Shown here: positions 5,069 to 30,331 of the stretch, one piece after another
Position numbering within the stretch: position 1 is the first letter of the stretch
Layout: each line of letters opens with the position of its first letter
Assembly: GCA_035327385.1 (NCBI GenBank)
Contig: DAOLDN010000002.1
Span: forward strand, 1 to 39,546
DNA from: Verrucomicrobiota bacterium
GTDB lineage: Bacteria > Verrucomicrobiota > Verrucomicrobiia > Limisphaerales > JADLHS01
Reading direction: 5' to 3'
Length of the DNA stretch: 39,546 bases
The notes under the pieces: generated by a model
Seen by the model: only the letters and a program-made list of their open reading frames with translations
The model's database searches: none
Told to the model about the DNA's origin: nothing
Made by a program: the position numbers and the translations under genes

Positions 5069-5236
5069 GCCCGGACTTTAGCAGACCCAATGGTCAGGGT
5101 GAAAGGAAACAAAAAGGCAAAGCGGAAAGCGGAAGTCGCTAAATCCGAAATGGAGCACCGGTCTCCGACCCGGCGGATTCCACAGAAGCACATGGTCATA
5201 ACTGCCGCACTCCAATACGGAGGTATACCTCATCAC

Positions 5237-13927: not shown

Positions 13928-14011
13928 CTCAATGCCCAATGTTCAATGCCCAATGACTAATGAGCAATGTTCATTGTTCATTGTTCATTGGCCATTGATC
14001 ATTTCCCATTT
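13928..14011. repeat. 84-bp heptamer-tiled hairpin: six NNCAATG units followed by six NNCATTG-like units
   Basis: ctcaatg cccaatg ttcaatg cccaatg actaatg agcaatg | ttcattg ttcattg ttcattg gccattg atcattt cccattt. It fills the lolCE-lolD spacer exactly. Confidence 0.85.
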
Positions 14012-14023
14012 CGGAGGTGTGCA

Positions 14024-14698
14024 GTGAATCTTCCACTTTTGGATGCACAGGGTCTGACCAAGACCTACGTCATCGGCCGCCGTTCACTGGAGGTGTTGAA
14101 GGGCGTGAACCTGAACGTCGCTCGCGGGGAATTCCTCGCGTTGCGCGGGGCGTCCGGCGCGGGCAAGAGCACGTTGCTGCATCTGTTGGGTGGTCTGGAC
14201 ACTCCCAACGCGGGCGAAGTGCGGTTCGACGGTCGCAACATCGCCAGCCAGTCCGACCGCGCCCTGACCAGATTCCGCAACCAGAAGATCGGTTTTGTTT
14301 TCCAAGCGTATCATCTGTTGCCCGAACTGGACGCATTGGAGAATGTTTGTCTTCCCGCGCGCATGGCTCGTGTGCCCGTGGACGCCGCCGTGGAACGCGC
14401 TCGCGGATTGCTGGAACGTGTCGGGTTGAAGGACCGCATTGAGCACAAGCCCTACGAACTGTCCGGTGGCGAACAACAGCGTGTGGCCATTGCCCGCGCT
14501 CTGATCAACAAACCGGAACTGCTGCTGGCCGACGAACCCACGGGCAATCTCGATTCACACACCGGCGGAGAAATCATTGACCTGCTCTGCGGTCTGTGGT
14601 CGGAACAGGATACCACGCTGGTCATCGCCACGCATGACACGAACGTGGCGGCCCGCGCGCCGCGAGTCATTCAGTTGGTGGACGGACAAATTTCGTGA
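14024..14698 (+). CDS. lolD: Lipoprotein-releasing system ATP-binding protein LolD
   Basis: Walker A GASGAGKST, signature LSGGEQQRVAIARA and Walker B LLLADEPTGNLD. The start is set at the GTG at 14024, 6 nt after GGAGG. The track start at 13967 lies inside the hairpin repeat. Confidence 0.88.
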   Translation: MNLPLLDAQGLTKTYVIGRRSLEVLKGVNLNVARGEFLALRGASGAGKSTLLHLLGGLDTPNAGEVRFDGRNIASQSDRALTRFRNQKIGFVFQAYHLLPELDALENVCLPARMARVPVDAAVERARGLLERVGLKDRIEHKPYELSGGEQQRVAIARALINKPELLLADEPTGNLDSHTGGEIIDLLCGLWSEQDTTLVIATHDTNVAARAPRVIQLVDGQIS

Positions 14699-14701
14699 CG
14701 T

Positions 14702-14777
14702 GTTGCGTATTGCGTATTGCGTCAAGTAACAGGCGGAAAGGCTCGGCGAATTCTTGACGCAATACGCAACACGCAAC
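14702..14777. repeat. Heptamer-tiled hairpin with 25-nt arms (24/25 complementary) and a 26-nt loop
   Basis: GTTGCGTATTGCGTATTGCGTCAAG (14702-14726) pairs with CTTGACGCAATACGCAACACGCAAC (14753-14777). The arms are built from TTGCGTA heptamers. Confidence 0.9.
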
Positions 14778-14788
14778 ACGCTCCCGTC

Positions 14789-15479: not shown

Positions 15480-16544
15480 ATGAACGTTGTCTCCCTCGCC
15501 CGTCACGCCATGGCAACGCGATTTGAAATCGTGCTTTATGGGGACAATGTCGTCGCACTGCGCGCCGCCGGCGAGGAGGCAATGGACGAAATCTGCCGCT
15601 TGGAGAATCAACTCAGTCTTTATCGTGCCACCAGCGAGATTGCCCAACTCAACGCCCGTGCCGCTCGTGAACCGGTGCGGGTCACGCCGGAATTATTTTC
15701 ATTGCTGCAACACGCCGCGAAGCTGTCGGCTGAAACTGAGGGCGCGTTCGACATCACCGTCGCGCCGCTCGTACGCTGCTGGGGTTTCATGGGTGGAAAT
15801 AGTGCGCCACGGCAAAGAATGAACGGACCCACCCCTGACCTCTCCTGGGAGGGGTCAGGGGTGGGTTGGTCCGCAACTGATGGACGTGTTCCAACCGACG
15901 AGGATCTAGCAGCAGCCCGCGACGTCGTCGGCATGCGACTTGTGGAATTGAGCGAGCGCGAATGCTCGGTCCGCTTTGCACGTCCCGGCGTGATGCTGGA
16001 TTTGGGTGCCATCGGCAAAGGTTACGCCGTGGAACGCGCAGCCACAGTCCTTCTCGAAGCCGGTGTGACGAGCGCATTGCTGCACGGCGGAACGAGCACC
16101 CTCCGTGCAATCGGAGCGCCTCCAGACGCAAAGGGTTGGAAGATTGCCGTGAATCTTCCGGTCGCGCCGGAGCGCCGATCTCCGACCCGGCTCGACACGG
16201 ATCAGAAGCACGCCGGGTCGGAGACCGGGGCTCCAGTCGTGTTTGAACTGCGCAATGAATCGTTGTCCGTCTCCGCCGTGTGGGGCAGGTCGTTTGAATC
16301 CAGGGGCGAAACGTTCGGTCACGTCATTGATCCGCGCACTGGCCGGCCCGTATCGGGTGCGGTGCTGGCCGCAGTCGTCCTGCCATCAGCAACGGAAACC
16401 GACGCACTTTCCACGGCGTTGATGGTGTCGGGGTACGCAGGAGGCCGCGTGTTGTCGGAGTTGCGTCCCCAGGTCAAGACGCTGCTTGTTATGACGGACG
16501 GAGAACGGTTGGGCATTGAGCGACGCGGCTTTCCACCGGCATAG
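15480..16544 (+). CDS. apbE: FAD:protein FMN transferase (ApbE family)
   Basis: AFDITVAPLV..WGF, LGAIGKGYAVE and FGHVIDPRTGRP motifs. Confidence 0.88.
   Translation: MNVVSLARHAMATRFEIVLYGDNVVALRAAGEEAMDEICRLENQLSLYRATSEIAQLNARAAREPVRVTPELFSLLQHAAKLSAETEGAFDITVAPLVRCWGFMGGNSAPRQRMNGPTPDLSWEGSGVGWSATDGRVPTDEDLAAARDVVGMRLVELSERECSVRFARPGVMLDLGAIGKGYAVERAATVLLEAGVTSALLHGGTSTLRAIGAPPDAKGWKIAVNLPVAPERRSPTRLDTDQKHAGSETGAPVVFELRNESLSVSAVWGRSFESRGETFGHVIDPRTGRPVSGAVLAAVVLPSATETDALSTALMVSGYAGGRVLSELRPQVKTLLVMTDGERLGIERRGFPPA
15825..15872. repeat. GC-rich palindrome in frame inside apbE
   Basis: ACCCACCCCTGACC (15827-15840) pairs perfectly with GGTCAGGGGTGGGT (15853-15866), and the stem extends with one mismatch toward the loop. 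It encodes GPTPDLSWEGSGVGWS. Confidence 0.8.
16169..16234. repeat. Second palindromic element in frame inside apbE (66 bp, 22 codons)
   Basis: GGAGCGCCGATCTCCGACCCGGC (16169-16191) pairs with GCCGGGTCGGAGACCGGGGCTCC (16212-16234), 21/23 complementary with a 20-nt loop. It encodes ERRSPTRLDTDQKHAGSETGAP. Confidence 0.8.
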
Positions 16545-16614
16545 GAGCGCGGGCAGCTCGCCCGCAACTTCCAGTTGTTGGTCTTGAAACTCGCGGGCGA
16601 GCTGCCCGCGCTCC
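16544..16614. repeat. Perfect 22-bp inverted repeat (GGAGCGCGGGCAGCTCGCCCGC ... GCGGGCGAGCTGCCCGCGCTCC) with a 27-nt loop
   Basis: It starts at the last base of the apbE stop codon. There is no T-run after it, so it is not a canonical intrinsic terminator. Confidence 0.9.
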
Positions 16615-16668
16615 TGTCCGGCTATTTGACCGTTGAAAACGGGGCCGGGCGCGACTAGTTTCAGCCAG

Positions 16669-19388: not shown

Positions 19389-20882
19389 ATGATTACGCGT
19401 TACTCGCGCCCCGAAATGCGGGCCATCTGGACCGACGAAAACAAACTCAAGGTCTGGTTGCAGATCGAACTCCTCGCCAGCGAAGCGCTGGTGAAGGAAG
19501 GCGTCGTGCCCGCGAGGGATTTCAAGAAGATCAAAGCCGGTTGCGACAAATGGTTCGCCGACCTGCCCGGCCTCGTCGCGCGGCAAAAGGAACTGGAAAA
19601 GACGCTCAACCACGACGTCATCGCTTTTACGACGGCGGTCGCCGAAGTGGTGGATTCGGGGAACACTGATTTGGGGAGCACACGCGCCTCGCGTGTGGCG
19701 GTTGACGCCCCGTCAACCGCACCGAGCGCGCCATCACGCGAGGATTCTACGCGCGGTGGCGCGCATTGTTCCGACTGCGAGGGGCAGCCGGATGCACGCG
19801 AGGCGCGCGCGCTCCCCAACGCCAGCCGCTGGTTTCATTTCGGCCTCACCAGCAGCGACGTGGGCGACACTTGTTACGCCGTCCAGATGATGCAGAGCGC
19901 CGACATCCTCATCGCCGACGTGAAGGCATTGCTGCCCGTCATCGCCCGGCGCGCGAAGGAACACAAGTTCACGCCGTGCATGGGCCGCAGTCACGGTATT
20001 CACGGCGAACCCACGACGTTCGGCCTGAAGATGGCGCTCATGTATGACGAATTCAAACGCGCGCTCCGGCGTTTGGAAAGCGTACGCGAAGTTGTCGGTG
20101 TCGGGAAAATCTCCGGCGCAGTGGGCACGAGCGCGCACTTGTCACCGCGCGTCGAGGCTTACGTCTGCAAAAAGCTGGGCATTCGTCCCGCGCCCATCGC
20201 CACGCAAGTCGTGCAGCGCGACATCCACGCCGAGTTCCAACTCGCGATGGCCCTCGTCGGCGCGAGCATCGAACGTTGGGCGGTGGAGTTTCGCCATTTG
20301 CAGCGCACCGAAGTGCTCGAAGCCGAAGAACCGTTCACCAAAGGCCAGAAAGGCAGCAGCGCCATGCCGCACAAGCGCAATCCCATCACGTGGGAACGCC
20401 TCACCGGCCTCGCGCGCGTGTTGCGCGGCAACGCGATGGCCTCGCTGGAAAACGTCGCTCTCTGGCACGAGCGCGACATCAGCCACAGCAGCGTCGAGCG
20501 CATCATTTTCCCGGACAGTTGCACACTGCTCGATTACATGTTCGGCCTGCTCACGCGCCTGATGGATGGCATCGTCGTCTATCCGGCGAACATGAAGAAG
20601 AACCTCGGCCTCTCGCTCGGCATGTGGAACAGCCAGACCGTCCTGCTCGCGCTCATCAAGAAGGGCCTCACCCGCGAAGCCGCCTACAAACTCGTACAAG
20701 ACGCCGCCATGGAAACGTGGGCCGTCAAACACGCCGGCCGCGACGACGCGGATTTCCTGGAAGTGCTCAAAGCTACGCCCGAGGTAGCGAAACACTTTGC
20801 GAAAGGTGAACTGGAGAAACTCTGCTCGCTGGAGTTCCACTTCAAAGAGGTGAACAATAGATTCAAGAAACTGGGGTTGTAG
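19389..20882 (+). CDS. purB: Adenylosuccinate lyase carrying an in-frame insertion of about 50 aa
   Basis: MITRYSRPEM..., GLTSSDV, the signature GSSAMPHKRNP and WHERDISHSS. The start is at the ATG at 19389. Confidence 0.93.
   Translation: MITRYSRPEMRAIWTDENKLKVWLQIELLASEALVKEGVVPARDFKKIKAGCDKWFADLPGLVARQKELEKTLNHDVIAFTTAVAEVVDSGNTDLGSTRASRVAVDAPSTAPSAPSREDSTRGGAHCSDCEGQPDAREARALPNASRWFHFGLTSSDVGDTCYAVQMMQSADILIADVKALLPVIARRAKEHKFTPCMGRSHGIHGEPTTFGLKMALMYDEFKRALRRLESVREVVGVGKISGAVGTSAHLSPRVEAYVCKKLGIRPAPIATQVVQRDIHAEFQLAMALVGASIERWAVEFRHLQRTEVLEAEEPFTKGQKGSSAMPHKRNPITWERLTGLARVLRGNAMASLENVALWHERDISHSSVERIIFPDSCTLLDYMFGLLTRLMDGIVVYPANMKKNLGLSLGMWNSQTVLLALIKKGLTREAAYKLVQDAAMETWAVKHAGRDDADFLEVLKATPEVAKHFAKGELEKLCSLEFHFKEVNNRFKKLGL
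19673..19817. repeat. 145-bp MITE-like element with terminal inverted repeats, inserted in frame in purB
   Basis: GGGGAGCACACGCGCCTCGCGTG...CACGCGAGGCGCGCGCGCTCCCC with an internal GTTGAC-N5-GTCAAC hairpin. By hand alignment it is about 80 % identical to the element at 30129-30278. Confidence 0.85.
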
Positions 20883-20884
20883 CT

Positions 20885-21532
20885 ATGCCAGAAGATAGGA
20901 CCAAGAAGACCAAAGCGACGAAGAAGGCTGGCGCAAGCCATTTGTCCTCGGCGTCTTCTCCGTCCTATCCGCAAGGCTTCATTCCGCCGCACGGCGGCTA
21001 TAACAATCTGCTGGGATACCGCAAGTCTCAGATCATCTATGATGCCACGGTTCGCTTTTGCGACCGCTTCATAGACAAGAAATCCCGCACGCACGACCAG
21101 ATGGTCCAGGCCGCGCGCAGCGGCAACAAGAACATCGCCGAAGGCAGCCAGATTTCCGGCACTTCCAAAGAAAGTGAGATCAAGCTCACCGGGGTGGCAC
21201 GCGGCAGCTTGGAAGAACTATTGGGCGACTATCAAGATTACCTCCGCCAACGCGGCCATACCCTCTGGGACAAAAACAGTCGCGAGGCACTGTTTGTCCG
21301 CAAACTCGGCGCGCGAAATGATGAGTCCTACGAGTCCTATCGGTCTTTTATAGAAACCCGCCCCGCTGAAACCGTGGCGAACATCCTCATCTGCCTGATT
21401 CATCAAGCCAACTACCTGCTCGACCAACAACTCCGGCAACTCGAACAAGAATTCCTCCAAGCCGGCGGCCTGCGCGAACGCATGACCCGTGCCCGCCTGG
21501 CTGCTCGCGCCAAAGCGCCCATCCGCGAATGA
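20885..21532 (+). CDS. Four-helix-bundle protein (23S rRNA intervening-sequence-protein-like) with a C-terminal extension
   Basis: YRKSQIIYDATVRFC...QMVQAARSGNKNIAEG...ARGSLEELLGDYQDYL, typical of this family. It starts 2 nt after the purB stop. Confidence 0.8.
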   Translation: MPEDRTKKTKATKKAGASHLSSASSPSYPQGFIPPHGGYNNLLGYRKSQIIYDATVRFCDRFIDKKSRTHDQMVQAARSGNKNIAEGSQISGTSKESEIKLTGVARGSLEELLGDYQDYLRQRGHTLWDKNSREALFVRKLGARNDESYESYRSFIETRPAETVANILICLIHQANYLLDQQLRQLEQEFLQAGGLRERMTRARLAARAKAPIRE

Positions 21533-30031: not shown

Positions 30032-30128
30032 AGTATGCGTTGAGTTTTGTTGGTTGATTAGCGCGAGGCGCTTCAGGTTCGCGGATTGGTCATTGGTTTG
30101 TTTCGGGCGTATCTCACTTTTCTGAAAT

Positions 30129-30278
30129 GGGGAGCGCACGCGCCTTCGCGTGCGGCTGTTGACTCCCTCGTCAACCGCATCCGGGAGCGCCTCCGCGCCG
30201 GATTCAACGTGCAGCGGCGCGCGTCGTCCCCGGCTGCGAGGCGCTGCCGGGTCGCACGCGAGGGCGCGTGCGCTCCCC
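30129..30278. repeat. 150-bp MITE-like element with 26-nt terminal inverted repeats, an intergenic paralogue of the purB insertion
   Basis: GGGGAGCGCACGCGCCTTCGCGTGCG ... CGCACGCGAGGGCGCGTGCGCTCCCC (25/26 complementary) with an internal GTTGAC-N6-GTCAAC hairpin. Confidence 0.9.
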
Positions 30279-30331
30279 AAAAGCCAAAAGTGCCGCAAAC
30301 CGGGATGTGGCGGGTATTTGTCATTTGCCAA

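Follow-up and report, generated by a model that had tools for sequence, protein, structure and literature searches.

The purB gene for adenylosuccinate lyase in a 39,546-nt stretch of DNA from a Verrucomicrobiota bacterium (assembly GCA_035327385.1, contig DAOLDN010000002.1, positions 1 to 39,546; hereafter the window) contained a palindromic repeat that was read through in the same frame as the rest of the protein. This insert is very probably a REPIN, a pair of inverted repetitive extragenic palindromic (REP) units, belonging to a repeat family which is linked to REP-associated tyrosine transposases (RAYTs) and found across Verrucomicrobiota, and carried in frame in a loop of PurB. Evidence came from the comparison of purB with its orthologues, from the structure of the element and its relatives in other genomes, and from the many states in which the same site was encountered. 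Coordinates are collected in Table 1; other loci and PurB proteins are designated by L and P numbers, respectively.

The insert and its host protein

PurB of the window was 497 amino acids long, as compared with 444 in insert-free orthologues, the standard length; the difference of 53 residues corresponds to 159 nt. Its best solved relative, PDB 1f1o, was matched by HMMER in two pieces (query 1-87 to chain 1-80, and query 144-497 to chain 83-430), so that the extra residues sit between residues 80 and 83 of the Bacillus subtilis enzyme. A preliminary description of the window, made from its sequence, had estimated about 50 extra residues with respect to B. subtilis PurB and had reported that the open reading frame (ORF) continued across them with the downstream catalytic motifs intact. 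These points were confirmed: the peptide DSGNTDLGS...EARALPN is encoded at 19653-19820 inside the purB ORF (GSTRASR / VAVDAPSTAPSAPSR being among the stretches encoded by the insert), and HDV, WFHFGLTSSD, GRSHGIHGEP, and GSSAMPHKRNP were conserved on the two sides of it (identical or conservative in the 1f1o alignment). Pfam domains Lyase_1 and ADSL_C were found on all PurB homologues, and the window protein presented the full-length homology and the conserved catalytic and signature motifs (SSxMPxKxN signature loop) of adenylosuccinate lyases.

The orthologue set comprised the 120 best homologues, nearly all of them without taxon name or labeled Verrucomicrobiota. The site was empty in 88 of the 120, reading xINDxA-SRWFHFG with nothing between; the extra block is thus not an ancestral loop of PurB, an explanation that was ruled out, and the earlier proposal of an insertion stood. 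At the DNA level the insert-free allele L121, the closest to the window core, reads AAG ATC AAT GAC GAC GCC AGC CGC TGG at this point. The insert lies in a loop of domain 1, between the catalytic residues His68 and His89 and seven residues N-terminal of the latter, in the numbering of the B. subtilis enzyme (His68, His89, His141). Solved homologues already vary in length at this loop (SES-LGEERKW vs. SETPALGEERKW).

Values of the ratio of nonsynonymous to synonymous substitution rates (dN/dS) between the purB core of the window and nine other alleles, eight of them occupied, ranged from 0.06 to 0.10, indicating strong purifying selection, and a PurB protein identical to that of the window was recorded on 3 contigs. 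Translation of the insert, as a disordered loop ahead of His89, is most likely in view of the open frame, of purifying selection, and of the analogy with other systems. No stop codon interrupted the GS...ALP frame, whichever way the element was turned, and 76% of all reading frames were open across 34 elements. An AlphaFold model of PurB placed residues 90-145 as coil (predicted local distance difference test, pLDDT, of 24-36) between a helix and the SRWFHFGLTSSD motif; being poor as a whole (50-sequence alignment, mean pLDDT 61, predicted template modeling score 0.55), the model supports only that the insert is unstructured. Search of the 52-residue insert peptide against 5.8 billion proteins returned one match of 74 amino acids, through a word index that does not reach such sequences.

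The element and its family

The core of the insert consisted of two inverted REP units around a variable centre. The 145-bp core with terminal inverted repeats given in the preliminary description was recovered, with ends of 25 nt, as was the internal GTTGAC/GTCAAC hairpin, at 19698-19720; the end motif of the right unit was matched on the minus strand with 1 mismatch. A second copy of the same subfamily lies at 30129-30278 between two minus-strand genes, coding for a TPR protein and for SCO1/SenC (gene map, Pfam), with arms of 40 nt at 30115-30154 and 30253-30292. Its relationship to the purB core, noticed earlier in this non-coding DNA, held in formal alignment (88% column identity with MAFFT, and 81% over 154 nt with blastn). 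Folding energies were -112 kcal/mol for the purB copy, whose terminal stem measures about 25 bp, and -124.5 kcal/mol for the second copy (z = -9.3 and -10.1, respectively), and none of 200 shuffled sequences was as stable. Inverted units separated by a spacer and forming one long hairpin, as in REPINs, were thus present in both copies, each unit being an imperfect palindrome with two hairpins in place of the usual one. At the left junction, GATTCGGGGA at 19653-19662 recurs in nearly the same form as GATTTGGGGA at 19668-19677 (in the order GATTCGGGGA, ACACT GATTTGGGGA), whereas allele L127 has a single copy of that junction (GAT TCG GGG AGC); judged from this comparison, 19659-19672 is probably a remnant of an earlier element end and not original purB sequence.

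A scan with the end motif GGGGAGCRCRCGCGCC(N)TCGCGTG, using one genome per GTDB species, retrieved at least 120 loci. Among the 120 matches listed, 117 were labeled as Verrucomicrobiota or the Planctomycetes-Verrucomicrobia-Chlamydiae (PVC) group, with Chthoniobacterales, Limisphaerales, Pedosphaera, Akkermansiaceae, Terrimicrobiaceae, Udaeobacter, and one Kiritimatiellia represented. The other three (L094, L105, and L120) came from metagenome-assembled genomes (MAGs) labeled Alphaproteobacteria, Nitrospirota, and plain 'bacterium', and could reflect binning contamination or real spread outside Verrucomicrobiota. Loci were fetched as stretches of 8-20 kb (1.08 Mb of DNA in total); in them, paired ends were spaced 107-158 bp (32 cases) or 577-635 bp (4 cases), and several copies occurred per 8-kb stretch in L079, L053, and L108.

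Short elements shared one plan. Behind a GGGGAGC head came two hairpins, both with a CC(C)T loop: hairpin 1, nearly constant, had a stem of 7 bp (in most cases GCACGCG or ACACGCG), and hairpin 2 a stem of 9-10 bp, which varied in sequence and was closed by GGCG/CGCC. A variable centre and a mirror-image half followed. The head was found in all 220 ends and hairpin 2 in 204/220 ends from other genomes, the latter with 130 different stem sequences; pairing in hairpin 2 reached 98%, as compared to 67% when partner arms were shuffled, and all four pair types appeared at positions 5-10. Rare variants of hairpin 1 were altered on both sides of the stem (e.g., GCAGCCG and GCGCCCG). G·T mismatches exceeded A·C mismatches 41 to 11 over the 220 ends, with a hairpin-2 scoring that slightly favors G·T, and 17 to 4 in hairpin 1 alone, scored without that bias; this excess hints that the structured strand is that reading 5'-GGGGAGC. 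The centre was conserved only within the subfamily (30129-30278, L122, L128, L127, L057, L067, L087, L113, and L048), and full-length relatives including the centre, 75-87% identical, were found in L057, L067, L087, L113, L048, and L076, none of them in purB and most of them intergenic.

The 577-635-bp versions with the same ends encode a protein of about 190 amino acids with the motifs PDHVHLL and Y(I/V)xxNP, which matched the NCBIfam model REP_Tyr_transpos (NF047646; 82.8 and 90.6 bits vs. a cut-off of 80) and Pfam Y1_Tnp (PF01797; 30-38 bits vs. a cut-off of 23). A GGGGAGC end adjoined all five RAYT genes present in the 1.08 Mb of fetched DNA (L012, L020, L043, L081, and L079, the last one cut by the end of the locus). 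In L012, L020, L043, and L081 the open frame of the RAYT crosses both REP units, and no ATG stands out close to the conserved N-terminus.

No direct repeats indicative of target-site duplication were found at the flanks of 34 doublets, and the outer flanks of 180 ends extended the inverted repeat only weakly, by T-Y-Y / R-R-A. The same ends flanking RAYT genes, together with the lack of target-site duplication, identify the insert as a REPIN rather than as a classical miniature inverted-repeat transposable element (MITE) of the DDE type; Y1/HUH RAYT genes were the only coding partners with these ends. From the preliminary description of a 'MITE-like palindromic element', the palindromic repeat insertion was therefore retained and the MITE label was dropped. 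Other classes were also discarded. Membership in the GTAG-tagged REP superfamily was rejected on account of the GGGGAGC head of all 220 ends, GGAG not being among the published variants (PMC3733652). A known structured RNA or self-splicing intron was rejected as well: no Rfam family reached its gathering score over the whole window, and a permissive scan of 19600-19900 gave only MIR918 (35 bits vs. a gathering score of 268), a noise match produced by the long hairpin of the element. The element was not considered a Rickettsia palindromic element (RPE), given that the peptides at the purB site are unconserved, that hits are almost all from Verrucomicrobiota, and that Rfam gave no match; this was judged without comparison to RPE sequences, the likeness being one of behavior only.

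The closest published parallel is the description of intragenic GTAG/CGTC REPs by Di Nocera, De Gregorio, and Rocco (2013, BMC Genomics 14:522; PMC3733652), in which the verrucomicrobium Opitutus terrae had the highest count of in-gene REPs, with both uvrA genes and a DNA ligase among the hosts, and in which in-gene dimers encode 20-30 residues and long inverted repeats take the place of REPs beside some RAYT genes. Short palindromic units or dimers lying wholly within protein genes and read in frame, the verrucomicrobial peak, the host classes uvrA and DNA ligase (those occupied in loci L108 and L114, see below), and RAYT genes flanked by repeats or long inverted ends are common to both sets of data. 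The purB family differs in its GGGGAGC head (GTAG/GTGG in theirs), in its two-hairpin unit of about 48 nt, and in the 53 residues of the insert; furthermore, that study examined genomes singly and traced no site through a series of relatives, and adenylosuccinate lyase is absent from its host list. With the REPIN-RAYT systems of Pseudomonas and Enterobacteria (Bertels and Rainey, 2011; PMC3116915; PMC3337134) the family shares two inverted REP units and a spacer forming a long hairpin, non-autonomous elements with a RAYT flanked by the same REPs, no target duplication, sequences near a family master, and a distribution common to related genomes, whereas those elements are described as extragenic and have other sequences and head tags.

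According to the accounts of Ogata et al. (2000) given in PMC10969869 and PMC3733652, RPEs, the classic analogue, are palindromic repeats some 150 bp long that have entered unrelated housekeeping genes of Rickettsia without breaking the reading frame, the hosts being thought functional and the insert lying on the surface. The preliminary description had likened the purB insert to RPEs in an unrelated lineage; the likeness in behavior was upheld, but the insert is not the first of its kind in this lineage, as in-frame REPs have been published for O. terrae (PMC3733652). The two differ in phylum and lifestyle (the purB host being free-living and GC-rich) and, as far as these accounts of RPEs go, in that each RPE family encodes a conserved peptide whereas the peptide at the purB site varies with orientation and family, and in that no RAYT link is described there for RPE-1. 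Classical bacterial MITEs (Correia/NEMIS, ERIC, Nezha, and similar; reviewed in PMC10969869) are likewise small, non-coding, and provided with inverted ends, and occasionally fuse in frame with host ORFs; in contrast, they originate from insertion sequences with a DDE transposase and duplicate their target site, whereas no such duplication was seen in the purB family, which has an HUH/Y1 partner. In-frame insertion of REPs and RPEs is accordingly already known; what is new is that this family has been described, that purB joins the hosts, and that a single orthologous site was found in so many states.

Probable turnover at the purB site

The same gap was occupied in 32 of the 120 best PurB orthologues, with 8 to 54 extra residues, and the DNA of the site was examined for nine purB alleles. 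Allele L127 carried an element of the same subfamily in the same orientation with an internal deletion, whereas in L122 and L128 the same subfamily lay on the opposite strand (84 and 79% identity, respectively, over about 149 nt), L128 having additionally two right ends in tandem. In L123 only the two ends were left, as a 31-nt hairpin contributing 8 extra residues. L125 and L126 followed the same plan but differed in the stem of hairpin 1. The REP doublet of L124 was of another kind, headed by GTAGCGGCGGTC and carrying GTAGCGGCGG unlike the GGGGAGC family, and in L129 a TTAAATCGT palindrome was flanked by the leftover ends GATTCG and TCCCCC. Different element families also occurred in alleles whose cores were 96-97% identical (P0002, P0013, P0005, and P0007). 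Right junctions varied between alleles (ALP/SRW, ALP/ASRW, ALP/NASRW, ALP/SASRW, and ALP/SPSRW). Inserts were 81-87% identical across genomes in which synonymous sites were only 49-66% identical; this indicated that they are held near, or re-seeded from, a family master sequence and do not simply drift. A single ancient insertion followed by neutral drift was rejected as the whole story for this reason and because both orientations occur.

Occupied alleles were clustered on the PurB tree, with 19 Fitch steps as compared to a mean of 28.3 in shuffled data, and none of 2000 shuffles reached 19. Aspartic acid was present in all 32 occupied alleles (xID) at the position at which another residue, mostly asparagine (xIND), was found in 87 of the 88 empty ones, P0037 being the exception. 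Nevertheless, an empty allele was the nearest neighbor of some occupied ones at 96-97% identity (P0004-P0040, P0012-P0034, and P0019-P0026). We infer from these data an early occupation of the purB site followed by repeated events inside the occupied site.

A mechanism that would account for these states starts with a RAYT moving the element as single-stranded DNA into the purB loop. The copy may have survived there because its length keeps the frame, GS...ALP is stop-free in either orientation, and the loop would tolerate a disordered excursion of 8-60 residues, so that the insert would be translated as a passenger without function of its own. The occupied gap would then turn over in three ways: other genomic copies would convert it ectopically, in either orientation, by way of the nearly identical inverted ends; deletion between the arms would leave a hairpin of ends only; and other palindromic elements would nest inside it. 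Selection on the essential purB would let pass in-frame outcomes only.

The presence of at least five element types, in two orientations, in one codon gap could alternatively mean that the purB loop is an active, preferred target, at which different REP/RAYT systems insert repeatedly by recognizing the local DNA sequence or structure. The interleaving of occupied and empty alleles on the tree, with some nearest neighbors empty, the differing right junctions, and the precedent of different REPs at about the same recB site in two Xanthomonas species (PMC3733652) agree with such a target. Yet the 180 outer flanks display no target motif or duplication beyond the weak T-Y-Y, the junctions in UvrA and purB have no common sequence, clustering beyond chance along with aspartic acid in place of asparagine in all occupied alleles suggests common descent of the occupied state, and remnants of old ends around newer elements (L129, L128, and the window) point to events within an occupied site, which leaves repeated targeting unlikely.

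Co-option of the insert, by which the loop would alter the behavior or assembly of the enzyme, or the RNA or DNA structure would tune purB expression (ribosome pausing, RNase III cleavage, or transcription pausing), could be suspected from the position of the site between two catalytic histidines, from the extreme stability of the mRNA structure and its long terminal stem, from the persistence of the occupied state in about a quarter of the sampled orthologues, and from the conservation of the inserts above that of synonymous sites. The peptides of the alleles are, however, wholly different in family, orientation, and length, which precludes a conserved peptide function; intergenic copies elsewhere are equally conserved, so that it is the repeat family, rather than purB, that accounts for the sequence conservation; and most orthologues do without any insert. 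Co-option is for these reasons very improbable. It is hardly credible that the insert stands outside a working protein, as would happen in a decaying or redundant purB, in an assembly artefact at the repeat, or if the RNA were removed before translation. The source is probably a metagenome assembly, in which repeats are classic places of misassembly, and a second purB may lie beyond the 39.5 kb of the genome in view; against this, homology is full-length and in frame on both sides of the insert, the identical protein recurs on separate contigs and the 31 other occupied alleles come from independent assemblies (JGI, ENA, NCBI, and Logan), the low dN/dS speaks against a pseudogene, Rfam matched nothing, self-splicing introns included, and RNA excision would leave no reason for the keeping of frame and the avoidance of stop codons in every allele.

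Several observations weigh against a translated REPIN that turns over in place. All 32 occupied alleles are in frame, yet the protein database shows intact ORFs only, so that this proportion is partly an effect of how alleles were sampled. Two copies were present within 39.5 kb of the source genome, and no RAYT gene was found by tblastn within the window, the link between element and RAYT coming therefore from other genomes. The head is GGGGAGC and not the GTAG tag of classical RAYT-associated REPs, and the unit, with two hairpins, is longer than a typical REP. Finally, the tree requires at least 19 changes of state although the shared xID fits a single origin.

REPs were named 'extragenic' and the biology of REPINs has been worked out almost entirely in Proteobacteria. 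To this, the present data add a REPIN/RAYT family that extends across Verrucomicrobiota and whose units have two hairpins and a head other than GTAG, and, in purB, a clean case of a REPIN inside an essential metabolic enzyme adjoining catalytic residues. Across about 30 independently assembled alleles, the site ranges from empty to full (in both orientations) and includes copies with an internal deletion, hairpins of ends only, nested elements, and replacements. The use of the finding lies here: at this one orthologous position an open frame is strongly selected, and it could serve to measure how fast and by what mechanisms REPINs are gained, converted, and lost. We regard it as distinctly doubtful that several unrelated REP/RAYT systems land in this gap again and again across the verrucomicrobial clade, or that occupation is kept because the insert tunes PurB expression or assembly; were either true, purB would be a naturally occurring setting in which REPINs could be followed as they insert, invert, replace one another, and leave an orthologous, selectable position. 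For annotators of verrucomicrobial MAGs, who should expect inserts of this kind, the consequences are overlong proteins, spurious 'novel loops' in predicted structures, and possible fusion of adjacent ORFs (as in L108 and L114).

Other in-frame repeats and neighboring features

Table 1. Position of the purB insert, its parts, and related elements (window coordinates unless a locus is named).
Feature	Position	Strand	Description and evidence
purB (adenylosuccinate lyase) coding sequence, insert host	19389..20882	+	497 amino acids; PDB 1f1o, E = 3.6e-130; Pfam Lyase_1 and ADSL_C; core dN/dS 0.06-0.10
Whole extra block	19659..19817	+	159 nt = 53 codons, frame GNTDL-GSTRASRV...EARALP; codon comparison with insert-free L121, protein alignment
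Near-duplicate of left junction	19659..19672	+	GGGAAC ACT GAT TT, 14 nt before core; junction repeat, comparison with L127
REPIN core	19673..19817	+	145 nt, two inverted REP units and centre; 25-nt inverted ends, 92% complementary; paired exact end motifs; RNA fold z = -9.3
Left REP unit	19673..19720	+	Head GGGGAGC 19673-19679; hairpin 1 ACACGCG-CCT-CGCGTGT 19680-19696; hairpin 2 GCGGTTGACG-CCC-CGTCAACCGC 19698-19720; read from sequence
Variable centre with own hairpin	19721..19769	+	GAGCGCGCCATCACGCG...CGCGCGGTGGCGCGC; predicted fold
Right REP unit (mirror)	19770..19817	+	Hairpin 2' TCCGACTGC-GAGGG-GCAGCCGGA 19770-19792; hairpin 1' GCACGCG-AGG-CGCGCGC 19794-19810; tail GCTCCCC 19811-19817; read from sequence
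Second REPIN copy, same subfamily	30129..30278	+	150 nt, intergenic; 88% alignment; 40-nt arms; fold z = -10.1
RAYT gene, L012	3012-3588		Enclosed by inverted two-hairpin REP units
RAYT gene, L020	4852-5433		Enclosed by inverted two-hairpin REP units
RAYT gene, L043	2231-2809		Enclosed by inverted two-hairpin REP units
RAYT gene, L081	1316-1950		Enclosed by inverted two-hairpin REP units
REPIN, L108	166-281		In UvrA linker
REPIN, L108	1393-1546		At UvrA C-terminus
REPIN, L114	5925-6036	minus	Joins upstream ORF and ATP-dependent DNA ligase ORF

Other in-frame hosts were sought by means of an ORF-spanning test on the fetched loci. In L108 (Chthoniobacterales MAG, DASQPH010000044.1) a REPIN is placed in frame in UvrA just before the PQSLTRDYL linker, aligned to residue 602 of 2r6f, ahead of the second ATPase half. 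At the UvrA C-terminus, a second REPIN of this locus keeps the frame open into the uvrA-like ORF that follows, and may represent a repeat-mediated gene fusion. The element of L114 (Chthoniobacterales MAG, DATMEN010000027.1) lies in a joined open frame of 946 codons, the N-terminal domain of the ligase beginning three residues past the element; the upstream ORF, which matched no Pfam family, reads as a putative MBL-fold exonuclease from its sequence. Spanning ORFs in L035, L066, L098, and L101 corresponded to upstream regions or spurious GC-rich ORFs and were excluded from the in-frame cases.

Within the window, the gene for ApbE (FAD:protein FMN transferase, 15480-16544) contained two other in-frame palindromes with respect to solved ApbE structures, at 15827-15866 and 16169-16234; one is a perfect 19-bp hairpin (ACCCACCCCTGACCTCTCC / GGAGGGGTCAGGGGTGGGT) and one a REP doublet (GGAGCGCCGATCTCCGACCCGGC / GCCGGGTCGGAGACCGGGGCTCC) encoding ...PERRSPTRLDTDQKHAGSETGAP.... 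The ApbE-type REP was also observed as a single unit at 5151-5175. A REPIN-like doublet at 16543-16615 (31-nt arms, 90% complementary, DNA fold z = -10.4, head GGAGCGC) begins at the stop codon of ApbE, ahead of a rhomboid gene. The GGAGC head is common to three repeat types of the window and is possibly the counterpart of the GTAG tag in this lineage.

Another palindrome, unrelated in sequence to the GGGGAGC family, was located at 14699-14780 between an ORF at 13967-14698 and a TPMT-type methyltransferase gene (28-nt arms, 96% complementary, z = -8.6, with TTGCGTA heptad repeats). Directly after purB, an ORF of 215 amino acids (20885-21532) matched PF05635 (23S rRNA intervening-sequence protein, four-helix bundle) with 28.8 bits, below the gathering score of 33.8. 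Upstream of the insert-free allele L121 (323-1663) we found a phage-integrase-like gene and IS66 transposase fragments, which places purB in a rearranged neighborhood; gene order around purB differed in almost every fetched locus, and the downstream genes differed in every related one.

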